Made by a program: the position numbers and the translations under genes
Notes under the pieces: generated by a model
What the model saw: the letters and a program-made list of their open reading frames with translations, nothing else
Databases searched by the model: none
What the model was told of the DNA's origin: nothing
Part shown: in pieces, positions 17,216 through 32,759 of the stretch
Position numbering within the stretch: position 1 is the first letter of the stretch
How the letters are laid out: each line of letters begins with the position of its first letter
Sequence record: OR352955.1
Reading direction: 5' to 3' (one strand)
DNA: 64,000 bases
Origin: Escherichia phage AV125

Positions 17216-17688
17216 TGGCAGATTTAACTACGATCAAAGTTTCTGATCTTACACAAACAACCTCTGTGTCTGATACAGATTTCTTTGTAACAGATCAGGC
17301 TGGAATAACAAAGAAAACTTCTTTGAAAGTGCTGTTGAGTGGTGCAGGGGTAACTAGAAACCGTCTGAATGCACGGGGAACAGTAACTAGCACATTGGCA
17401 TTAGATATTAGTTCAGCAGAATATTTTTCAGCAACTTTATCTTCTGAAACGTGCACAATTAGTTTTACTAATATTCCAGTAGCAACAAATGCAGTTTTAA
17501 ACTTTACTTTAGCTTTGCGTCAAGGAAGTGGTGCAAATAAAGTCGTATGGCCTTCTTCTGTAAAATGGAGTTTTGGTCGTTCCCCAGTTTTGAGTTATCG
17601 TCAAGGTGCAACAGACACTTTTGAGTTTATCAGTTATGATAATGGTGCAACTTGGACAGGTAGCTTAGTTTTAGCAGGAGTTATTTAA
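17215..17688 (+). CDS. Small tail protein carrying a fiber N-terminal anchor-like motif
   Basis: N-terminus VSDTDFFVTDQAGITKKTSLKVL resembles the N-termini of the 22735 tailspike and the 45-aa ORF at 25189. Confidence 0.3.
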   Translation: MADLTTIKVSDLTQTTSVSDTDFFVTDQAGITKKTSLKVLLSGAGVTRNRLNARGTVTSTLALDISSAEYFSATLSSETCTISFTNIPVATNAVLNFTLALRQGSGANKVVWPSSVKWSFGRSPVLSYRQGATDTFEFISYDNGATWTGSLVLAGVI

Positions 17689-20564
17689 TGTCAAGAGTTA
17701 AGCACAATATTGACAACACGTTTCAGTTGATTGAAGGGTTGGTTCAGTTTTTGGAAAGAAATACTGGGCTTACCATAGATCCTACGGTTCAGCATTACAT
17801 TATCAACCCACAAAACGTATTGGCGAACAACAGACACTTTATTAACTGGACAGCGCAGGAAGGGCAACCAAACGGTGACGCTACTACCGAAGGTCAATCT
17901 GTGCTTATCACTGGTTTTGCTTATGCATATTTGGCTACAGGGGATAAAAAATATCTTGAATCTGCCGAGAAGTATTGGCAAGCCTATATAGATCACTTCT
18001 TCGGGGGCCAACCTATTCCTGATCCTCCGGCTAAGTATCGTCCCAACTGGATCATCAATGGTAAAGAACCACGTTTAGCACATTACCCTCTCACAGATGA
18101 TGGGTATCCTACGCACGGTGGGTTCAAAGGTAGCATGATGACTTGGATTAACGGAAGGACTGTTATTCCTAAAGGTGCACCGCATTGGGGAGAATACTTA
18201 GATAAAGCTTGGTTTGCTTTCAATGGTAATCTTGGTTGGAACTCCGTTAACGCAACAGTTTATGCAACTAACCCAGATGGTTCAACTAACTGGAAAGAAT
18301 ATGGAGATCAGTGGGACGTTGAATGGATTATAGATCGTCTAGGACGTAAAGTTGATTGGGATGGTAACATTTTATCTGCAGGGCACAGCTTCGCAGAATA
18401 TGGAACAGTGCAACTTAAAAATGCTTCTGTGAACGGTGATTATAAATTCAACTACGCTACATGCAACCCTGTAGAACACGGTGGATATCTGCTTAAGCGT
18501 AATGAGATGTGGCATAACCGTCCTGTAAACGTTCCGGTAGAGTTAGGCTATCAAGATAATGCTTCCGATGCTGAAACGTGGTGGTGTGATGCAAACTACT
18601 TGATGTATCAGATCACAGGAGAGAGAAAATACTGGCTTTGCTGGCAATCTTCTTTATTGTTGTGTCAAGACTACTCAAACATCGATATGTTTGATAAATT
18701 CTTCCGTAGATCTACGACAGCAATAATTCCTTTTACAGATGGTATCTCGTATGATTACTCATACCCATCTACAGCAATACCTAAATATTCTCGTGACGAA
18801 TTAGGATATACAGTAATTCGCCAAGATGTTTCAGCACAAACAACTCTAGAACAACAGGCAGTTTGGTTCAGAGTGGATCAGAATTCAAAACTGCGTATTG
18901 AGTTTCAAGGTGTAGATGATGCAGGGGAAGGTGTTCTTTTCCGTCCAGAGTTAGAATTAAGCAAGACTAAGAGTGAAACAGACACAGTGACATATCGTTG
19001 TGGCTTACCTCTTGGTGCAGCTAATATGACTAAGATGGATATACCTTTATCTAGTTTTATGCGCACCGAACCTCCTGGAGGTGGTGTATATATTATTGCT
19101 GAACCTAGAATCATTGTTGACTGGGGAAGCAATACTGTGATACAATATAAATATGCAACTGGTATTGCTGGGACAAATAGTGATCAGATAGTTTCTGCTA
19201 ATATGGATTCAGATGGTGGTTTTACTATTGGATTTTGGTTAACACCAACTAAAACAGCCAATTTAAAATCTATTACCTATCGTTCATACGCAGATGATTT
19301 TAACATCACTATTACGGATTCCGCAGGTTGGAGATGGTGGGCCATGTTAGAAAAAACAAATTCTGCATGGGTTACTAAAGCTTTAAGTCCTGCTGATTTC
19401 AAATTAAGCACTTGGCAACCTAATCACAATGACACAGAGACAAAACCTTCGTCAATAAACCTGACTGCTGTTGATCAGATCAACATTGCATTGGATTCTG
19501 AACCTGCAAATGGCTTGACAGGGGCAATCGACTTTTATTGCGTTAACGATATCCCATCTTTGTATTCTTCAGCCGCTGGTGATGATTACACAATGTATTT
19601 CAGGGTTACAGTTTCATCTGAAAATCCTTATACAGCAAAACTTGGAGATTGTACAATACTGGACTACAAACTTGACAGTTTGAATTATACTCCAGGAATC
19701 ATTCCATTTTCCAATATTAGTGATCCTAACACAGCATTATATGACGGTTGGCGTGGTATTCCTTACCCAGGTTATCAATACCCATCCTTATATTGTTTTA
19801 AAGGGAGAGATATTGACTGGGTTCGTATGAACAACAGTATAGACTTTTTATATGATTCACAAATGTGGTTTTATAATAAGTTTGCCCCTGTGATGCCTGG
19901 GCCAATGGCACAAGCTTATGTTTGGGATCGTTGGGATGCTCATAAATACGGAAACAAGAATGAGTTCACAATGTATCATTGGAACGATAAAGCTTGGGAT
20001 GGTTATGAAGCACGAGCATTCTTCTGTGCATGTCATACAGTATACGAACTGAAACAACGAGGAGCAGAAGTTCCTGCAAAACTTTTAACAGTTTGTAAAA
20101 ACTGGATCAACTATCTGAAATGGTTCCAAGATAACAACGAAGGAAGAACACCAACAATATTTTATCCCAATGGAGAAGTGGCTGCGCCTGTAGATGACTT
20201 TACAAGTCACATGTCTGCGCTCTTTATGGCGGGATGTGCTATAATGGGGATGGCTGGATATGATTCAGAAATTCCTAACATTAGAATAGTAGCAGACCGC
20301 TGTTTTGAACTTATTCAGGAAAACTATATTGTTCTTGGTCCTAATCACGTCATGAATGGTTGTTGGAGTGCCGCTCCTAGACCAGACAGTGATAACGGAG
20401 TCTTCTTTGGCTTCCACGCTGGAGAGTTGTTACGTGGTTTTGGGTTGTATGCTTTATACAAAAAACTTAATCCCCAAAATGCATTACCTGTTTTGGATTC
20501 GAGCAATATTCCTGCACTTACTGTTTTGACAATGGCAAACATTAGTGTGGACGTTACCGAGTAA
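17688..20564 (+). CDS. Large tail/baseplate-associated protein (958 aa), possible enzymatic receptor-binding protein
   Basis: Large ORF in the tail cluster; Trp/Tyr-rich; segment ITGFAYAYLATGDKKYLESAEKYWQAY is suggestive of a glycoside-hydrolase-like helical barrel (weak). Confidence 0.3.
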   Translation: MSRVKHNIDNTFQLIEGLVQFLERNTGLTIDPTVQHYIINPQNVLANNRHFINWTAQEGQPNGDATTEGQSVLITGFAYAYLATGDKKYLESAEKYWQAYIDHFFGGQPIPDPPAKYRPNWIINGKEPRLAHYPLTDDGYPTHGGFKGSMMTWINGRTVIPKGAPHWGEYLDKAWFAFNGNLGWNSVNATVYATNPDGSTNWKEYGDQWDVEWIIDRLGRKVDWDGNILSAGHSFAEYGTVQLKNASVNGDYKFNYATCNPVEHGGYLLKRNEMWHNRPVNVPVELGYQDNASDAETWWCDANYLMYQITGERKYWLCWQSSLLLCQDYSNIDMFDKFFRRSTTAIIPFTDGISYDYSYPSTAIPKYSRDELGYTVIRQDVSAQTTLEQQAVWFRVDQNSKLRIEFQGVDDAGEGVLFRPELELSKTKSETDTVTYRCGLPLGAANMTKMDIPLSSFMRTEPPGGGVYIIAEPRIIVDWGSNTVIQYKYATGIAGTNSDQIVSANMDSDGGFTIGFWLTPTKTANLKSITYRSYADDFNITITDSAGWRWWAMLEKTNSAWVTKALSPADFKLSTWQPNHNDTETKPSSINLTAVDQINIALDSEPANGLTGAIDFYCVNDIPSLYSSAAGDDYTMYFRVTVSSENPYTAKLGDCTILDYKLDSLNYTPGIIPFSNISDPNTALYDGWRGIPYPGYQYPSLYCFKGRDIDWVRMNNSIDFLYDSQMWFYNKFAPVMPGPMAQAYVWDRWDAHKYGNKNEFTMYHWNDKAWDGYEARAFFCACHTVYELKQRGAEVPAKLLTVCKNWINYLKWFQDNNEGRTPTIFYPNGEVAAPVDDFTSHMSALFMAGCAIMGMAGYDSEIPNIRIVADRCFELIQENYIVLGPNHVMNGCWSAAPRPDSDNGVFFGFHAGELLRGFGLYALYKKLNPQNALPVLDSSNIPALTVLTMANISVDVTE

Positions 20565-20572
20565 GGGGTAAA

Positions 20573-22726
20573 ATGAAACAAGCTATATTTACTGTCACGC
20601 GAGACAAGAGAGTAAATGCGAGTTCATTTAACTACACGACTGTTGACGGAACAGCAGTCGCTGGTAGAGATTATATAGCAAAATCGGGAACACTTGTGTT
20701 CCCTGATGATGCTGATTCTGCTACCATTGTGGTTGAAGTATTTGAACGACCAAAGAACTCAATAGATCTTAACTTCTCCCTCCAAGTTTCAGGGATTAGT
20801 CAAAATAACATGATGGTTGAAACGACCATCAATTGTATTATAACTACTATCCAAGAAAACACTACTCCAATAACTTGGACTACAAAAGACGTTAAAATGT
20901 TCTCTCCTATGTATTGGACAATAGACTCTCAAGCAACGGAAAGTTGTTCTATTGTATCTCATGGAGACTCTTTTACTGCAAGATTTGTAAACAGAACAGC
21001 AGCAGGTTTGGCAGGGGTTATCTGGAGCACAGTTGACAAATATGATCACAAAGGTGTTGGGTATTTACCCCACACAGATTTAAGTTCAGAGAAACTTTGG
21101 TTTAAAATGGAAATTAGTCAAAACATGCCAGGTTTTAAAGAAGAACCTTTGGTGCCGACTTTGACTGTAACTCTCCTGGATAAAAGTGTTCATTATGTCA
21201 GTTTAGGATTCTACGCTTCAGATATTTCAGAAGATGGTAAAACAGCCACAATCAAGTTAGATTTTGGTAATATCTTTTCTGGCCCTAATAATGATATTCC
21301 TTTGGATATGAGTGCTGTAGATAATATTTTCTTCTCTTTGATTACAGCAAGGTATGAAGAAATAGAAGAGATTGTACCTATTGCCAGTCAAGAGGCTTGG
21401 TTTACTTTCACTCTTCTTGAACCTACTTCTGGTTACAGTATGATGAAAGTCAGCAACCTTGTTCAGCCTGAACATGATATTCGCATGTGCACATCTTATG
21501 ATGATATGTATAACCTGACTCCAGAGAGAGTTATTTATAATACGTATGCACTAGGTTATCGTGGAATGATTAACCATTACAACGGAATGTCTCACTATTA
21601 TGAGTTCTCATGGAACGGAACATCTTGGGCTTTAAATAGATCTGTTTTCCTGAATCCGGCTACAGAAGCTTGGCTTAACAGTTTCCATTCTATAGCTAAT
21701 GAAAATGGCTACACAATAATGAACTCTTTGAGTTTTGAGTTGATGAGCACAGTTTGTCCTGTAGAATGGGTTCAACATGATTGGAACGATGCTCTTGCAG
21801 CAACAGGTTATGAGCCGCCTAGTTATGTGTTATCTCCAACAATTGATGAAGGTATGGAATATTTGCAAAATGTTATTAACAAAATAGCATCTATTTCTCA
21901 AGCTAACAATATTCCAGTCGTCATTCAAATTGGTGAACCTTGGTGGTGGTATAATACAGCAAGTAAAATGCCTTGCATATACGATTACACTACCAAACTG
22001 GCATTCAACACAGAAACTGGCTTATTTGCACAAGATGCAGGAACAATAGATAATTATAAAACAGGAACGCCGTTTGACGAATACTATGCGTTTTTGTCTC
22101 GTAAACTAGGATTAAGAGTTACAAAGTTTGCAACAGATACTAGAGCAACTTACCCAGGAGCTAAAGTAACATTGCTTCCGTTCTTACCATCGATTATCGG
22201 CAACGGTTTGATGGAGAAAGTTAACTTTCCGTCTGATTACTACATTCCTGAAACTTTTGATTTTTACTGTTCAGAGTGTTACGACTGGCTTCTGGAAGGT
22301 AAAATGATGAAAGCATTCGATGCAATTACCATACCACGTGAAAAATTAGGTTTTGAATATTCTGATATTCACTATCTTTCAGGTTTTGTTCCAGATGCTA
22401 CTCTTGCGCCTTTGTATGGCTTCGATCCTGAATCAAACTACCGCACGTATCTTTGGAAAATGATTATAGGTAATATAGTGTTGAACGCCAATAAGTTCAA
22501 TGGGCTTACACAATATATATGGGCCTATCCTCAAATAATGCATGATTCCATCACGGTAGTTAATTCTCAATCCCAAGTTTTCTATATGGGTAACGTGCCT
22601 TTGAACGTTTATTTACAGGATATCACGCTTAAACAGGTAAATGTTGAGATTGCCACCATAAGTGGAATTACATTAGCCACTAAATCTGGAGAAGATTTAG
22701 TAACAACACAAAAATTTTATATATAG
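20573..22726 (+). CDS. Tail-associated protein with N-terminal Calx-beta-like domain
   Basis: N-terminus FTVTRDKRVNASSFNYTTVDGTAVAGRDYIAKSGTLVF matches the Calx-beta pattern (R, DG, TA.AG.DY, G.L.F); 717 aa, in the tail cluster. Confidence 0.35.
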   Translation: MKQAIFTVTRDKRVNASSFNYTTVDGTAVAGRDYIAKSGTLVFPDDADSATIVVEVFERPKNSIDLNFSLQVSGISQNNMMVETTINCIITTIQENTTPITWTTKDVKMFSPMYWTIDSQATESCSIVSHGDSFTARFVNRTAAGLAGVIWSTVDKYDHKGVGYLPHTDLSSEKLWFKMEISQNMPGFKEEPLVPTLTVTLLDKSVHYVSLGFYASDISEDGKTATIKLDFGNIFSGPNNDIPLDMSAVDNIFFSLITARYEEIEEIVPIASQEAWFTFTLLEPTSGYSMMKVSNLVQPEHDIRMCTSYDDMYNLTPERVIYNTYALGYRGMINHYNGMSHYYEFSWNGTSWALNRSVFLNPATEAWLNSFHSIANENGYTIMNSLSFELMSTVCPVEWVQHDWNDALAATGYEPPSYVLSPTIDEGMEYLQNVINKIASISQANNIPVVIQIGEPWWWYNTASKMPCIYDYTTKLAFNTETGLFAQDAGTIDNYKTGTPFDEYYAFLSRKLGLRVTKFATDTRATYPGAKVTLLPFLPSIIGNGLMEKVNFPSDYYIPETFDFYCSECYDWLLEGKMMKAFDAITIPREKLGFEYSDIHYLSGFVPDATLAPLYGFDPESNYRTYLWKMIIGNIVLNANKFNGLTQYIWAYPQIMHDSITVVNSQSQVFYMGNVPLNVYLQDITLKQVNVEIATISGITLATKSGEDLVTTQKFYI

Positions 22727-22734
22727 GAGTAAAA

Positions 22735-24930
22735 ATGTCAACTACAATTACTAATTTACCCGAAACATCAAAAGTTAATGGTTCTGATTACCTGGTTTTA
22801 GACCAAGCTGACAAGACTGTTAAAAGCACAGTTTCCAACTTTCTTACTGACACTGGGGTGGTTTTAGCCACCCAGTTGAAAGATACAGATGGAGCAGATT
22901 TAATACAATCCTCAAATGGTAATACTGTTCAGGAAGAGTTGAATAACAATCTTCTTAATGATCGTGAACTATGGCGTCGTAGTCTTGCTGAGGCAGGGTT
23001 AACTCTTGTCAACGGTAGCTTTGAAGATGGCGCTATATTAAATAATAAGACGGATGCTGTTTGGTATATTGCAGGTGGACAGTGCTATACATGGGGTGGT
23101 GCTTTCCCTAAAGCTGTTCCCGCTGACTCAACCCCTGAAACATCCGGTGGTGTTGGGCCGGGTGCGTGGGTTTTGGTGAACGCCACCACCCAGCTACCTT
23201 ATGTCACCCCTGAAATTTATGGTGCAAAGGGTGATGGCGTAACTGACGACTTGACCGCGATACAAGCGGCATTAGATTCAGGTAAAGATGTAATTTTTTC
23301 TAAAAAATATACAGTATCAGCCCGTTTAACTTTGAAAACTAATAACCAGACTCTACAATTTATTAATGGGTCTTCTTTGATGTGCAATGTACCGACAGTT
23401 ACCTTGCTGTATGGTTCTGGTGTTACAGGTGTCAAAATCTTTAATGCTCGTCTTGCCTCCAGTTCAGGTTCTACCAACACATATAATGGTTCTTGTGTTT
23501 GGTTAGATACATGCTCATATTGTTGCATTGAAGATTGTGTGTTTTCTAACTATAAAGCCTCGGCGGTATTTCTAAATAACTCAAGTTATTGTAATGTTGT
23601 GAGATGCACATTTTTGGGATCTCCGGGGGCTGCTGGTGACGTGACTATGTGGCGTTCCAATGTGGGGCACTTGATTTCTGATAACAATATGGTTTCTGGT
23701 TCAGATACTGCTATTGTTTTGCAAACAATTGATGATGGGGACCATTCTAATGCCAACAGAATAGTTAACAATACTATTGAAAATTGTACGCGGTATGGTA
23801 TAGTCGTTTATAACAATCTGGAAACAAAGACAGGGACACTCACCAATACATTGGTACAAGGGAACACCATTAAGAATATTTATGGTAATGTTCTTAATAC
23901 CACAACCCAAACATATACTTACGGATCAGGGATATACATTTTGTCTGCCGAAGGTATCAAAGTGATTGGGAATACCATAGATCTCACAAATCAAAACACC
24001 GATTCTACGACACTTTCACCAGCGTGTATTGGTGTGAACGCAACATCTGAAGCCATTATTTCCAATAATATAATTTCTCGTGGGGCTTATTATGGGATTA
24101 TGATTTCAGATGCACTACAGCAGGGGGTAGGGACTAACGCCAATTCTGAATCATTTAAACCAAATTCTACTGTCGTTGTTGCTAACAATATTATTAAAGC
24201 ATGTTCCCGTAGCGGGTTGTATATCTTTAATCATCATAATGTTAAATGTGTGGGTAATATCACTATTTCCAACACACAAAATGGGGTTCTCACAGGTGCT
24301 GATAATGCGTTATATCCAACTTTAAACAATATTGAAATTCTTTCGCACACTTCCAGAGAAAATACTATGGCTGGTCTGTCAATAACAAAATGTGATACCC
24401 CTACGATTGATGTATCAGAATGTAAGGATAATTCGGGAGATGGAATCTATTGTTCTTCAATAAATGCTGTTATCAAAGTGGGGAGCGTAATTCGGAACAA
24501 CAGAGGGATCGTGATTGCAGCTTCCGGTTGTTCAATAATGGGCGGTAGAGTCACAGGGAATACTACAGGAATATTATCTACTCTTAGTTATAAGTTGATT
24601 TCTGCTTATGTAGCTGGTAATACTACAGATTATTCTGGGGATTTCGGTCCAATTTTGTCCTACAAAGGTAACTCTACACCATCAGTCAAAGACAGAGATA
24701 CGATCATCCTGAGCGATGCCACTACCATAACCGATTTCACTGATGGTGTGTTGGGCCAGACAATTAAGATTAGGGCCACAGTTAATGGAACGGTTATTTC
24801 TCATAATTCATCCGGTATACGTCTTAAAGGGAATACCTCATTCTCTATGCAAGCTGGAGAAACATTGACGTTAACTAAATTTTACACGAACCAATGGGAT
24901 GAAATATCTAGAAAAACCGTAACCGAATAA
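22735..24930 (+). CDS. Tailspike with right-handed parallel beta-helix (pectate-lyase-like)
   Basis: N-terminal anchor motif SDYLVLDQADKTVKSTV; motif FPKAVPADSTPETSGGVGPGAWV; repeated N/G-x-I-x-N beta-helix rungs (NNTIENCTRYGIVVYNN, GNTIKNIYGN, SNNIISRGAYYGIMISD). Confidence 0.5.
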   Translation: MSTTITNLPETSKVNGSDYLVLDQADKTVKSTVSNFLTDTGVVLATQLKDTDGADLIQSSNGNTVQEELNNNLLNDRELWRRSLAEAGLTLVNGSFEDGAILNNKTDAVWYIAGGQCYTWGGAFPKAVPADSTPETSGGVGPGAWVLVNATTQLPYVTPEIYGAKGDGVTDDLTAIQAALDSGKDVIFSKKYTVSARLTLKTNNQTLQFINGSSLMCNVPTVTLLYGSGVTGVKIFNARLASSSGSTNTYNGSCVWLDTCSYCCIEDCVFSNYKASAVFLNNSSYCNVVRCTFLGSPGAAGDVTMWRSNVGHLISDNNMVSGSDTAIVLQTIDDGDHSNANRIVNNTIENCTRYGIVVYNNLETKTGTLTNTLVQGNTIKNIYGNVLNTTTQTYTYGSGIYILSAEGIKVIGNTIDLTNQNTDSTTLSPACIGVNATSEAIISNNIISRGAYYGIMISDALQQGVGTNANSESFKPNSTVVVANNIIKACSRSGLYIFNHHNVKCVGNITISNTQNGVLTGADNALYPTLNNIEILSHTSRENTMAGLSITKCDTPTIDVSECKDNSGDGIYCSSINAVIKVGSVIRNNRGIVIAASGCSIMGGRVTGNTTGILSTLSYKLISAYVAGNTTDYSGDFGPILSYKGNSTPSVKDRDTIILSDATTITDFTDGVLGQTIKIRATVNGTVISHNSSGIRLKGNTSFSMQAGETLTLTKFYTNQWDEISRKTVTE

Positions 24931-25378: not shown

Positions 25379-25621
25379 ATGAGAAAGTTTTTAATCGGAA
25401 TGTTTTGTACTTATCCAAACAACAAAATCAGTTCTACTAAAGTGTGGAACGCACTGGGAATGCTAACCATGACAGGCATGTTTATCTTTTTAGGAATAGA
25501 AAAAGAAATTCCTGAATGGATGGGTTGGGCTTTTGTTTTCATGATAACTCCTTCTCGCCTCATGAAAAATCTTATTGATTTACGCTGGGGCAGATCACAA
25601 TCTACCAAAGAGGATGAATAA
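25379..25621 (+). CDS. Small membrane protein (two predicted TM helices)
   Basis: 80-aa ORF with two hydrophobic segments (LIGMFCTY...; MTGMFIFLGI...WMGWAFVFMI). Confidence 0.3.
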   Translation: MRKFLIGMFCTYPNNKISSTKVWNALGMLTMTGMFIFLGIEKEIPEWMGWAFVFMITPSRLMKNLIDLRWGRSQSTKEDE

Positions 25622-27110: not shown

Positions 27111-27740
27111 ATGGCAGTGAGTGTTGACCATGTAACAACTTGGGCCAGTATCAATGAAGATGTTAAAAACCTTCTGATTGAAGATTTTAAATCTTCTCCT
27201 AACATTGTCAAGCTCCTCTACATCGTATCCAGTGAAAAGCAAAAGATAGATCAGGCAATGATCTATCTTGCTAAACACCGCTTGATCTCTACAGCCACAG
27301 GCAAATACCTAGATATTCTAGGGGAAGAAATGGGGATCGAACGTAATGGCTCTGATGATGAAGAGTATAGAACAATATTAAAAATCAGGGCTTACCGCGT
27401 AGCCTCATCGGGGACTCGTGGTGACATAATTGATATCTTCGCCCGTTTCACAGGAACAGAGCGTGAAACGCTTAATACTTACGTAGGTTTGAATAAAACC
27501 TTTGATGTGTTTTTCTACAACCTGTGTCTTCAATCTGATCAAGCTTTAGAGCAGTTGCTAAGTGTTTTCCCTATTATTAGTAGCTACCGTCTTGGAGCAA
27601 AAGCAGGATCAGCTTTTGGTTTTAGTTCTTATTATGCTACCAAACCGCCTCATGGTATTGGTGGTTTAGGTTCCCTGTACATGGAATCTACTGGGGATGA
27701 AACAGGACGCATGTGTACGCTTCTCAAGCAAATAGATTAA
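27111..27740 (+). CDS. Baseplate/tail protein I-like
   Basis: 209-aa ORF between the J-like and tail fiber genes, the conserved J-I-H order. Confidence 0.35.
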   Translation: MAVSVDHVTTWASINEDVKNLLIEDFKSSPNIVKLLYIVSSEKQKIDQAMIYLAKHRLISTATGKYLDILGEEMGIERNGSDDEEYRTILKIRAYRVASSGTRGDIIDIFARFTGTERETLNTYVGLNKTFDVFFYNLCLQSDQALEQLLSVFPIISSYRLGAKAGSAFGFSSYYATKPPHGIGGLGSLYMESTGDETGRMCTLLKQID

Positions 27741-29705: not shown

Positions 29706-32700
29706 ATGGCAACATTCCCAACATATCCAGCAACGTCTCTCGAACAGGGCGTAGACCTGGTTATTTTCTCATCTAACCAACTCCATGATGTTATTAATGG
29801 AAGTGCTACAGAGAGTATTGAAACAGAATCAGGGTTGATACCAACCCTGAGAAAAGCCCTTGTTGACAACTTTTTCTTTAAAAGCCCATTGGATTGGGCG
29901 CAAGGCACAAACGAAACAGTTTTTAACCAACTTCGTTATTTCCAGAATGGAGTGTTGAGTGGTTATTACTATGCGCCTAATGCTACACTGGTAAACCCAA
30001 TTCCTATGCAAGGGACTCCAGTAGGAGATAACAACTGGGTATTGTGGGGACTGAAGACAGAACAACTAGCAACAGAAGTCACCCCTTGGGTATATTCTGG
30101 TGCAACTGGTTATGAAACAGTAATCAGTCCTCCCTACATCTTTGATAGTGCTATTGTTACAATCAATGGTGTTATTCAGGTTCTGGGAGAAGCTTTCCGC
30201 ATAGAAGATAGTAAAATCATTTTATCTGAACCTTTGGGACATGATCCTGCAACAGGACTGCCAAACAAGCTTTTTGCCTATATTGGTAAAATCGTAGCTT
30301 CCGCAGATACAGATCCTAACTTAGAAAACCGTCTTGTCAGTTTAGAAACAAAAACTGAAGAACTGACAGAAAGCATGGATAAAGTACCTTTACAAACTAT
30401 TGCTCGTAAATACGGTTTGTTGGATGATGAAGTAGCTTACGCAACAGCGGGTCAATCATTAACAGGGATTAAAGCTCTGTATGATCCAGTAGCACAATCT
30501 TCCTACACATTGCCTCCTAACATCACAGGGACTTTAACATCTTTGTCTGTTTCTGGAGTAATGACTTATTCTGGCGGATCTGTAGATCTTTCTGCATTAG
30601 CTGTTGAACGTGGACAGTTTGTTCATTTGCCTACAAGCTTTGGTAATAATGTAACTCTGACAGCTAAAAATCAGACGATTGGACGTGGTGCTGGTCGTTA
30701 TCGTTGGGCTGGAAGTTTACCAAAAAGTATTTTGGCCTCTGACACGTTAGAGACAAGTGGTGGATTAGGTCCAAACGCATGGGTTCTAACTAATACGGAA
30801 GGACTGTTAACCCCTCGTGGTGGAACATACAACGATTTATTCGATGTTGTCTACTTGTCAGAATTTGCTAACAATACAACTACCTATACCACACCAGAAG
30901 CAGCTTTCCAGGCGGCACTGTTAGCAGCAAAAGCTTCGAAAAGTAAGATTCTCGATGCTTACGGTTGCGATATGACTTTCACGACAAGCTCTTTTGATAT
31001 TCAAGGTATCACTTTGCGTGGTGGTGTGTTCCGTGGTCAACGCGACTATCGTGTGCAGAATGCTACAGTAGAAGGCACAACTTTCCGTAACTCTCGTGTT
31101 ATGTATTGGGGTGGTGCTGTGCGCATGTTCGATTGTTTGTGGGACGGTGCTCCTCGCGCAGGTCAAGTTGGTAGCTTGGTATTCCAAGGCAACCCAATAT
31201 CAGGTACTTTTGAAATTGATAATTGTACTTTTAAAAACGGGTTATATGGCATCCTTCAACAAGGGACAGGAGAACCAGTAACACGCGGTGTCTTCCGTAA
31301 CCTTACCTTCATGGACATGCAAGGTGATGCGATAGAACTGAACGTCATCAATAAACATTATGATGATGGTTGTGTGATTGAGAATATTTACCTGTCTAAT
31401 ATCGATGGGACTAACGCTCCTATTCCTCTGTCCAACTGGGGTATCGGTATCGGTGTAGCTGGTAAAGGACCATATGGTTACGGAATCCCTGATGATCAAT
31501 ATTGCAAGAATATTACAATTCGTAACGTTTTTGCAAAACGTTGCCGTCAGATTGTCCACGTAGAAGTTGGTCGTAATATTTCTATCGAAAACATTCATGG
31601 CGATCCAGATCAAACCGTATCTGTTGGGACAGGTTTGGCAACTGGCGCAGTTGTAATGTATGGAAGTAAAGATTTTACGATTGACGGTGTTTATGGAGAG
31701 CCTAAAACAGACGGTAGCACACTTGCAAGTAATATCCGTATGATTTATTTGGAGTGGGGAACTAACGCAGTTCTGGACGAAGAGGGTAATCCGGTAGTTC
31801 CGGCACAGGGTAGACCTTCAAACCCATGTTTTAACTATTCTGTTCGTAACATTCACACCAAAACTGGGCGTGTTTTTGCGGGAGTTTCCGCTGGGCCAGG
31901 TTATGAAAACAGAGTTAGCTTTGAAAATATTCGTTGCGCTGCATTGCAGTTGTTCGGTATAGCTTCTTGGCTTTCAATGTCTAACATCACCTGTAATATC
32001 TTCGATTGTGTTGGTCAACCTGAATCTGGTCCAGGAACATTTTATGATGGATTCTTCCGTAGAGAAAAATCTGTTCTTGAAATGGTTAACGTAAACTGTT
32101 ACCCAGATGGCAAGACGATGGTTACTGGTCGTCCACAGTGGAGCCGTTGCCGTTACTCGGATATTCATCGTGTCAACTGTAATGTTGAAGCTAATATGTA
32201 TACCAATATCGCAGGTGGTATTGGAGCTATTGTAGGGACAACGGGCAAAGTTTATTACTTAGAGCCTAATCCTAGTCGAAACATTGATGGAATGCATTTC
32301 CCAACAGGGAAAGAGTTTGACAAAGGTGATATGATAGTCAAAGCGGATAATACGTTCTTCCTTGTAACAACAAGTGGGGCATATATTCCAGATATCCCAG
32401 CTTTCGGTATTCGAGCTACACAGGCAGGAGATACCTTCCTGACACAGAACTTGACTCCTAACGGGACAGCAACAAATGCTTCTTGGTTGTATCATTACCC
32501 TCTGTCAGCAGGGACACGTATCCGTATTCCTGGTGCTGGTGTAGGTGGAGCAGATTTGGACACAGTTATTACTCGTGCACCTTATCAAGATAATGATACG
32601 TGGACTAACCCAGTTAAAATAGACATTGCAGATCCAATTGTAACGCCTACAAGTGCTGGAGTTAGAATTAAAACCATACCTAATGATTCCAGTAATGTTT

Positions 32701-32759
32701 CTGTAGGTAATACTGCGGTTATTCGCCCAACGCCAGTAGTAGATGTGCCAACAACCTAA
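29706..32759 (+). CDS. Tailspike/tail fiber (1017 aa) with beta-helix-like region
   Basis: Internal module RYRWAGSLPKSILASDTLETSGGLGPNAWVLTN shared with two other fiber genes; beta-helix-like repeats (ITIRNVFAKRC, ISIENIHGDP, SVRNIHTKTG); followed by a terminator. Confidence 0.5.
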   Translation: MATFPTYPATSLEQGVDLVIFSSNQLHDVINGSATESIETESGLIPTLRKALVDNFFFKSPLDWAQGTNETVFNQLRYFQNGVLSGYYYAPNATLVNPIPMQGTPVGDNNWVLWGLKTEQLATEVTPWVYSGATGYETVISPPYIFDSAIVTINGVIQVLGEAFRIEDSKIILSEPLGHDPATGLPNKLFAYIGKIVASADTDPNLENRLVSLETKTEELTESMDKVPLQTIARKYGLLDDEVAYATAGQSLTGIKALYDPVAQSSYTLPPNITGTLTSLSVSGVMTYSGGSVDLSALAVERGQFVHLPTSFGNNVTLTAKNQTIGRGAGRYRWAGSLPKSILASDTLETSGGLGPNAWVLTNTEGLLTPRGGTYNDLFDVVYLSEFANNTTTYTTPEAAFQAALLAAKASKSKILDAYGCDMTFTTSSFDIQGITLRGGVFRGQRDYRVQNATVEGTTFRNSRVMYWGGAVRMFDCLWDGAPRAGQVGSLVFQGNPISGTFEIDNCTFKNGLYGILQQGTGEPVTRGVFRNLTFMDMQGDAIELNVINKHYDDGCVIENIYLSNIDGTNAPIPLSNWGIGIGVAGKGPYGYGIPDDQYCKNITIRNVFAKRCRQIVHVEVGRNISIENIHGDPDQTVSVGTGLATGAVVMYGSKDFTIDGVYGEPKTDGSTLASNIRMIYLEWGTNAVLDEEGNPVVPAQGRPSNPCFNYSVRNIHTKTGRVFAGVSAGPGYENRVSFENIRCAALQLFGIASWLSMSNITCNIFDCVGQPESGPGTFYDGFFRREKSVLEMVNVNCYPDGKTMVTGRPQWSRCRYSDIHRVNCNVEANMYTNIAGGIGAIVGTTGKVYYLEPNPSRNIDGMHFPTGKEFDKGDMIVKADNTFFLVTTSGAYIPDIPAFGIRATQAGDTFLTQNLTPNGTATNASWLYHYPLSAGTRIRIPGAGVGGADLDTVITRAPYQDNDTWTNPVKIDIADPIVTPTSAGVRIKTIPNDSSNVSVGNTAVIRPTPVVDVPTT

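Follow-up and report, generated by a model that had tools for sequence, protein, structure and literature searches.

A 64,000-nucleotide stretch of DNA from Escherichia phage AV125 (sequence record OR352955.1; the window, below) contains an open reading frame (ORF) on the + strand for a protein of 717 amino acids (aa) with a Calx-beta domain at its N-terminus; the preceding gene, separated from it by 8 nucleotides (nt), encodes a 958-aa protein that ends in the tail IPALTVLTMANISVDVTE. The source phage is Phapecoctavirus-like (Stephanstirmvirinae) and about 97-99% identical to phAPEC8, ZCKP1, ukendt and others, and the window codes for a contractile sheath, tube, hub, central spike and wedge, along with several Tail_spike_N fibres. 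The 717-aa gene is situated in the lateral-fibre locus, between the baseplate genes and a tailspike gene of this contractile-tail phage, which bears out its description as tail-associated in the first-pass annotation, drawn up from the sequence alone; the ORF itself was confirmed in position, strand and length (Table 1).

Table 1. Features of the lateral-fibre locus, in window coordinates.
Feature	Position	Strand	Length or residues	Remarks
Carrier gene	17688..20564	+	958 aa	phi92 gp141 orthologue, PHROG 2871
Unstructured C-terminal tail of the carrier	20472..20561	+	residues 929-958	contains the proposed plug
Proposed plug	20508..20561	+	last 18 codons of the 958-aa gene	IPALTVLTMANISVDVTE; linker Pro plus strand-A-like segment
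Shine-Dalgarno sequence	20563..20568	+		AAGGGG, 4 nt before the ATG of the 717-aa gene
ORF	20573..22726	+	717 aa	phi92 gp142 orthologue, lateral-fibre receptor-binding protein by homology
Calx-beta sandwich, strands B-G	20573..20857	+	residues 1-95	from Pfam, AlphaFold2 and orthologue starts; proposed socket
NCTSP_N domain	20891..21448	+	residues 107-292	PF23844, 60 bits
TIM-barrel_NCTSP domain	21467..22546	+	residues 299-658	PF23845, 265 bits; putative glycan-binding or glycan-modifying body
C-terminal extension of the 717-aa protein	22622..22723	+	residues ~684-717 (~33 aa)	candidate tailspike docking site
Downstream tailspike	22735..24930	+	731 aa	N-terminus MSTTITNLPETSKVN..., Tail_spike_N, beta-helix
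Wedge-1 protein	27111..27740	+	209 aa	phi92 gp146 homologue, without the plug in this phage

The 717-aa protein is 76-77% identical over 100% of its length to Justusliebigvirus proteins of the phi92 gp142 type, with flanking genes alike, and 43% identical to a protein of rV5 named "baseplate protein with EPS depolymerase activity". Full-length orthology is accompanied by synteny with the gp141 and gp143 equivalents, the downstream tailspike standing where phi92 has gp143; the phi92 gp142 (77%) and rV5-like (43%) proteins, a family of which the window protein is a member, share its three-domain architecture and its gene neighbourhood. By homology, then, it is a gp142-type lateral-fibre receptor-binding protein of a phAPEC8-like contractile-tailed phage. 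Both NCTSP_N and TIM-barrel_NCTSP lie above the Pfam cut-off (27 bits, as for Calx-beta) and in the expected order. The NCTSP_N region matches residues 51-114 of N4 gp65, and the body matches N4 gp64 (9lc0_M) by sequence (phmmer, E 4e-30) and by fold (Foldseek, E 3e-21, TM-score on the target 0.63); the model also matches 9lc0_I (Foldseek, E 7e-15), and the next-ranked fold matches of the body are GH31/Cwp19-type sandwich-plus-TIM-barrel enzymes. The AlphaFold2 (AF2) model, from a 49-sequence alignment, has a mean predicted local distance difference test score (pLDDT) of 92.5 and a predicted TM-score (pTM) of 0.89. Having named the Calx-beta N-terminus correctly, the first-pass annotation had passed over this N4 gp65/gp64-like, putatively glycan-targeting body.

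In the N4 gp65/gp64 heterodimer (PDB 9lc0, 9yf4) the NCTSP_N and TIM-barrel domains are homologous to those of the 717-aa protein, and the glycan receptor pathway is the same. Unlike the lateral-fibre protein, N4 gp65 comprises ten domains and encloses a podovirus tail as a six-fold sheath, and N4 has no Calx-beta N-terminus. Public labels for proteins of the 717-aa type include "non-contractile tail sheath", "capsid protein" and "tail fiber"; the first is a misnomer here, because the phage is a myovirus with a contractile sheath of its own and the gene lies in the lateral-fibre locus. One record, PV191315.1, already labels the orthologue "Calx-beta domain protein", and the Calx-beta annotation alone is ordinary and already public. 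According to the literature, proteins of this type form a lateral tail fibre and contain a glycan deacetylase domain common to N4, and phages that carry them (relatives of the window phage only) have been tied to the wecB/nfrB-dependent NGR glycan (PMC8594841; PMC8669472); in a 2026 preprint, gp142-type proteins are identified as the receptor-binding protein for NGR (bioRxiv 10.64898/2026.04.02.716166). The N-terminal domain, its truncation and the upstream tail are all undescribed in the published work on phi92 gp142-type proteins, and no solved structure containing the 717-aa or the 958-aa protein was found.

Pfam Calx-beta (PF03160) matches residues 4-82 with 42.5 bits (E 7.4e-11), and the first 110 aa alone score 47 bits, well outside what chance would give. 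The motif residues (R10, S17/S18, Y21-T-T23, D25-G-T-A28, A30-G31, D33-Y34, G39-T-L41 and F43) are present as originally quoted, save that the spacing from R to S is two residues off; the core motif DGTA..G.DY, between strands C and D, aligns to NCX/CALX, whose calcium-binding domains are, outside phages, the sole relatives of the N-terminal segment with a solved structure (E 1e-7). AF2 predicts an N-terminal beta-sandwich of six strands (residues 3-10, 18-25, 38-42, 49-56, 66-73 and 85-90). Profile search and structure prediction, which the first-pass annotation had named as checks on the domain, thus both came out in its favour, and its N-terminal location stands; its extent is about 90 residues rather than the 60 or so first given.

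The complete seven-strand (A-G) sandwich was not found within the 717-aa chain. The Pfam match spans profile positions 24-104 of 119 and starts at protein residue 4; because it begins only at position 24, strand A is absent, and the domain is a Calx-beta member that starts at strand B. The original assignment to Calx-beta was sound, but it had not noted the missing first strand. The ORF cannot start further upstream: its frame is interrupted by a TAG at 20543-20545, and between this stop and the ATG there is no start codon. Every orthologue, down to 43-48% identity, begins alike, with M..A.F.v.R corresponding to strand B, and because all begin at the same point the absence of strand A is a conserved trait of the family. 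No replacement strand in cis was predicted by AF2, residues 91-103 being coil.

The 958-aa and 717-aa genes are separate, stand in different frames, and are translationally coupled. One way to restore the Calx-beta domain in cis would be for programmed frameshifting or readthrough to join the products of the two genes in a single chain, and in the window the downstream frame is indeed -1 relative to the upstream gene; there is, however, no slippery site at the junction, the downstream frame is open for just 9 codons before the ATG, a good Shine-Dalgarno sequence is present, and spacing, frames and stop codons vary between lineages. We rejected such a fusion as barely credible.

In nine lineages, the product encoded directly upstream of the Calx-NCTSP gene ends in a conserved two-part tail (consensus hxhxh-turn-[IVT][ST][VI][DN][VAF][TS]), the distance between the two genes being -1, 1, 3, 8, 9 or 12 nt. 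The tail is borne by two classes of carrier that are unrelated to one another (BLASTP E 0.48, with the alignment confined to the tail). On carriers of 958/959 aa the endings are ALTVLTMANISVDVTE, TLTVLTMNDISVDVTK, ALTVLTMKDISVDVTQ and TLTVLTASDVTVDVTKE; on carriers of 225-229 aa they are DILIYVDNISVDATE, PTLVKVSVLDTTVNFS, PSLIKVSVQDTTVNFS, TTIYCDPISIDVTAEG and TTIYCESITVNATRQEG. The short carriers, from rV5, Av-05 and relatives, are homologous to the tagless Wedge-1 protein of the window, and the rV5 tail is a 17-aa add-on past the last modelled residues of solved Wedge-1 structures (9mjn; 21vq_D, which is Phi92_gp146). The core of the 958-aa family ends ...GFWAGEILRGLGLY.LYK; the extension beyond it occurs only in phAPEC8/phi92-type members and is missing from about 115 of 120. 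Two tagless relatives of the 958-aa protein (loci L019 and L020, 72-76% identity) have no Calx-NCTSP gene downstream, and the wedge proteins of these two loci are tagless as well; one tagless wedge protein ends ...HLTYVSDEENTLI at its stop codon, which is the Av-05 type stopping just before the tail.

The AF2 model of the 958-aa carrier has a pLDDT of 87 for the body and is confident up to a helix at residues 908-927; residues 929-958 have no secondary structure and a pLDDT of about 30, a value that may stem from sparse alignment columns. No Pfam family matched the carrier, and its AF2/Foldseek matches are weak, to an (alpha/alpha)6 GH48/GH116-like glycosidase plus CBM-like sandwiches. Many copies of 958-like genes are found in Enterobacter and E. 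coli chromosomes.

The tail peptide is conserved while its codons diverge synonymously (Ser is encoded by AGT or TCT, for example), which indicates purifying selection on the peptide across the nine lineages; the extra QEG/AEG residues in the tails of rV5 and L011 encode the Shine-Dalgarno sequence of the abutting start codon. Residue covariation between the tail and strand B gave no clear signal, with too few independent lineages. Such conservation bears on the possibility that the tail is a fission relic or hitch-hikes in a cassette: an ancestral chain would have been split inside the Calx-beta domain, and recombination would move the 3' end of the upstream gene together with the downstream gene, leaving a tail that no longer binds and a protein attached via other surfaces. 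The resemblance of the tail to the inter-repeat boundary of a Calx-beta array and the existence of single-chain relatives would suit this account, and co-occurrence alone cannot separate function from linkage; a relic should nevertheless decay, rather than be held under selection while its codons diverge, and a sandwich left incomplete, its core exposed, would presumably be costly unless complemented. We regard this account as unlikely.

Similarity of the tails to strand A was assessed with a strand-A-only model made from the upstream segments of 278 natural Calx-beta repeats, tails excluded, against a null of 6000 random 32-mers. The natural repeats came from an exhaustive representative search that was itself dominated by giant repeat proteins; a homology search started from an alignment of the N-terminal domain yielded short fragments for the most part. 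Seven of the nine tails reached significance (p 0.02 to <0.0002), all seven on the same columns and with both carrier classes represented; the window tail had p 0.013 and two relatives p <0.0005, while all five tagless homologue controls stayed at the null (p 0.42-0.75). In one such alignment, IVDDRTYPTLTVLtasDVTVD is set against IlDdDpaPtlSis...DvtVt, and the native upstream consensus of the closest natural repeats is ddP.LSI.DVSVTEGdeGtgt. The strand B of these repeats, AvFTVTL, is nearly equal to AIFTVTR of the window protein, and the linker Pro is followed by strand B after 20 residues across the gene junction, as against 19 in natural repeats.

Natural fusions place the same parts in other arrangements. 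In P0223, a 1557-aa protein of an SU10-like podovirus, a 958-like core (corresponding to residues 9-941 of the window's 958-aa protein) is followed after about 7 aa by an NCTSP_N/TIM part corresponding to residues 108-675 of the 717-aa protein (52% identity), with neither tail nor Calx-beta domain; because P0223 joins the two cores directly without either, tail and domain occupy exactly the place of a covalent linker. P0207 and P0240 have a P2 gpI-type wedge domain fused to a 958-like protein, and in P0208-P0220 relatives of the 958-aa protein are fused to Gly-rich PF21722 modules. In Erwinia phages pEp_SNUABM_01 and Fifi051, the truncated Calx-beta domain heads a GH48 enzyme instead, encoded after the gene of a GH5-like hydrolase that ends, conserved, in ...QTVKLNLLAPAL(SD/A) and stop. 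This gene pair (L006 1524-3944 and L022 5001-7409) is present in two very different phages of 147 kb and 76 kb, and the hydrolase tail is more conserved than the remainder of the hydrolase. The bacterial relative P0256 has the same GH5-type hydrolase C-terminus with a Calx-beta domain following in frame. Small Erwinia proteins that stand alone (113-117 aa; pEp_SNUABM_01 gp073, L006 3986-4339; P0242-P0244) are made up of strands B-G and, after a linker, a terminal strand A (VISISDAV(L/I)T(T/Q)V) that scores 13-14 bits in the strand-A model (p<0.0002), a register-shifted and pilin-like layout.

We reasoned that the Calx-beta fold may be split over two polypeptides and serve as a plug-and-socket connector for the receptor-binding protein, a reading that comparative evidence supports well and that we hold to be moderately probable. 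The acceptor lacks one edge strand, and the partner ends in a segment matching it. The carrier tail, with its linker Pro and strand A, would insert as the missing edge strand and complete the sandwich of the 717-aa protein, and the completed fold would fasten the receptor-binding protein to the carrier non-covalently; the carrier would be the 958-aa gp141-like arm in phAPEC8/phi92-type phages, and the baseplate Wedge-1 protein in rV5, Av-05 and relatives. With a tailspike probably held by the C-terminal extension of the 717-aa protein, the chain would run from wedge to gp141-like, gp142-like and tailspike proteins; this order, and the physical pairing of tail with domain, we infer from the comparisons above. 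The earlier suggestion that the domain acts as an adaptor gains in substance from the co-occurring tail and from the covalent-linker position in P0223. We found no description of such a split Calx-beta arrangement in the searchable literature. For a wider scheme the chances seem about even: the multi-fibre apparatus of the rV5/phi92/phAPEC8 group and of some Erwinia phages would be wired by a natural split Calx-beta domain, through which receptor-binding modules (the NCTSP/TIM glycan binder, the GH48 glycosidase) snap onto different platforms by donor-strand complementation, with the cargo gene, on moving, bringing its own plug to the 3' end of whichever gene then precedes it and the B-G-plus-A proteins acting as pilin-like extension units.

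Several observations weigh against the split-domain reading. Co-occurrence is equally expected if tail and gene travel as one recombination cassette, the sparse alignment columns noted above may account for the low pLDDT of the tail, and the cryo-electron microscopy study of phi92 left gp141 and gp142 unplaced (maps PMC13450770). The p-values of the tails are not independent, the lineages being related; in the strand-A model the tails of L011 (p 0.23) and rV5 (p 0.09) were not significant, and the Erwinia GH5-type carrier tails (..QTVKLNLLAPALSD) were not significant as donors in either model. Adding the tail raised the score of concatenated sequences in a Pfam scan by +0.9 bit only, and under a mixed-subfamily, full-length Calx-beta hidden Markov model (HMM) the gain was +2.5 to +4.5 bits (p 0.01-0.26); for the gains in pairwise Smith-Waterman alignment p was 0.01-0.23, hhalign set the tail profile on strand A with E 0.71, and isolated tails had no specific match in the mixed HMM, some favouring strand E. 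Of these five earlier tests, the Pfam scan is judged uninformative and the other four underpowered and superseded by the strand-A-only model.

The non-significant results would also suit another account, in which an ordinary accessory Calx-beta or immunoglobulin-like (Ig-like) domain serves as decoration of the fibre or as a weak glycan binder, the protein does without the first strand or supplies it from its own linker, and the upstream tail has some unrelated purpose in the carrier. Phage structural proteins often bear Ig-like accessory domains, and AF2 is confident in the six-strand domain without a partner. An unrelated tail is, however, hard to reconcile with its presence on two unrelated carriers only if a Calx-NCTSP gene follows and its absence from close homologues that have none, with its score as a strand A in an independent model, and with a fusion (P0223) that dispenses with tail and domain together; nor is a strand from the linker predicted. 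We consider the accessory-domain account rather unlikely.

A calcium-dependent mode of attachment had also been proposed, the domain binding Ca2+ in the manner of NCX1 CBD1 and so regulating virion or host binding. Membership of the Calx-beta family and the conserved DGTA..G.DY motif are in keeping with this proposal, and, from the alignment, the terminal Glu of the tail falls where a strand-A glutamate ligand would be expected. The residues that bind calcium in NCX1 CBD1 are established. The acidic cluster that they form in the E-F loop and after strand G was not found in the 717-aa domain: its E-F loop, ERPKNSIDL, aligns to DDDIFEEDK/E, most of the ligand positions being Arg, Pro, Ser or Leu, and the orthologues conserve P.N[ST] at the corresponding position instead. 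In close relatives, moreover, the terminal Glu of the tail is replaced by Lys or Gln. Because the canonical ligands are mostly lost, calcium dependence is unsupported; a canonical calcium switch appears unlikely, and a calcium-dependent adhesion module as first suggested is highly improbable.

The same fold family, with the DGTA..G.DY core, comprises NCX1 CBD1/CBD2, CALX and bacterial tandem arrays, from which the 717-aa domain differs in being one strand short, in having the acidic cluster mostly replaced and in occurring as a single N-terminal copy. In chaperone-usher pili, an Ig-like fold minus an edge strand is likewise completed from another polypeptide, as the pairing proposed here would have it, and the Erwinia 113-117-aa proteins mirror the pilin design of an incomplete fold with a terminal donor strand; the two systems nonetheless share no homology, the missing strand here is A whereas in pili it is the last, G, the donor is C-terminal, and there is neither chaperone nor usher. 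SpyTag/SpyCatcher (CnaB2) also combines a short strand peptide with a truncated Ig-like domain, and the tail has a conserved Asp/Asn; SpyTag/SpyCatcher is, however, engineered and not natural, and a SpyTag-like isopeptide bond was rejected as unlikely, since the aligned acceptor domains have no invariant Lys. Tail_spike_N occurs in genes neighbouring the 717-aa gene, and modular, exchangeable docking on a conserved platform in branched, multi-spike assemblies is a feature of CBA120 TSP1-4, G7C gp66/gp63.1 and the K1E/K1-5 adaptor; in those anchors complete domains bind each other, whereas here one fold would be distributed over two gene products.

The 717-aa protein ends ...ITLKQVNVEIATISGITLATKSGEDLVTTQKFYI, with a pLDDT <50 for residues 698-717. 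Its C-terminal extension was compared between the window and loci L001, L002, L007 and L008, on the one hand, and L009, L024 and L025, on the other; it is present in all five loci with a downstream tailspike of conserved N-terminus MSTTITNLPETSKVN, and absent from all three without one. This distribution suggests that the extension is a second docking joint, holding the downstream tailspike. Fibre I of phi92 is L-shaped with an endosialidase at its tip, and its arm and fibre II are unassigned in the 2026 structure; a second docking joint would fit such a fibre. The similarity of the window tailspike to most Phapecoctavirus genomes stops at about 23172, some 146 aa in and just past Tail_spike_N, and phage AV123 alone matches it over the full length (83.7%); because similarity stops after the Tail_spike_N segment, the distal receptor-binding part of the tailspike appears to have been swapped.

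The assignment of genes to fibres in these phages has been described as unclear (Maffei et al. 2021). If the split-domain reading holds, gp141 would carry gp142 via the joint of tail and Calx-beta domain, gp142 would carry the tailspike, and the tail motif would make it possible to deduce the wiring of the unassigned fibres I and II of phi92 from genome sequence. It would also explain how the same glycan-binding module comes to sit on the wedge in rV5 and on the 958-aa arm in phi92/phAPEC8. What is gained beyond a Calx-beta match is a testable rule for the attachment of receptor-binding proteins in broad-host-range "Swiss-army-knife" phages. The arrangement would be a naturally occurring case of one domain encoded in parts by two genes and put back together in the virion, and would supply a compact, natural and orthogonal tag/catcher pair of peptide and domain for host-range engineering and phage retargeting.

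Elsewhere in the window, a conserved hydrophobic ORF of 80 aa (25379-25621, MRKFLIGMFCTYPNNK...) separates the fibre module from the wedge genes, as it does in all Stephanstirmvirinae loci examined. Among the other C-termini of the window, the highest score in the strand-A model (7.8 bits) belonged to TIPNDSSNVSVGNTAVI (32661-32756), at the C-terminus of a 1017-aa fibre protein (29706-32759); the gene after it starts with Tail_spike_N. As a donor tail this segment is probably a chance match, since it is internal, stopping 15 residues short of the terminus, and a terminator-like hairpin comes next.

Copies of the locus, rV5-like or phi92-like, are present in about 21 GenBank records (MG0656xx) whose label reads "Campylobacter phage" (host C. 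jejuni); these copies are nearly identical to those of E. coli phages, and the host label looks doubtful. Proteins of about 623 aa with NCTSP_N and TIM domains and without Calx-beta (L028 5001-6875 of Acinetobacter sp. COS3; P0010-P0071) are widespread as single chromosomal genes in Acinetobacter; they lie between catalase and mechanosensitive-channel genes, outside prophages. Their names nonetheless read "phage capsid protein" or "non-contractile tail sheath protein". Their use as a control lacking both Calx-beta and tail was dropped, stand-alone chromosomal genes being uninformative in this respect. In P0077-P0099, of about 780 aa and from alphaproteobacterial contigs, NCTSP_N and TIM are followed by a C-terminal DUF2460 (PF09343), a fusion that represents another way of attaching the NCTSP/TIM body to a tail.

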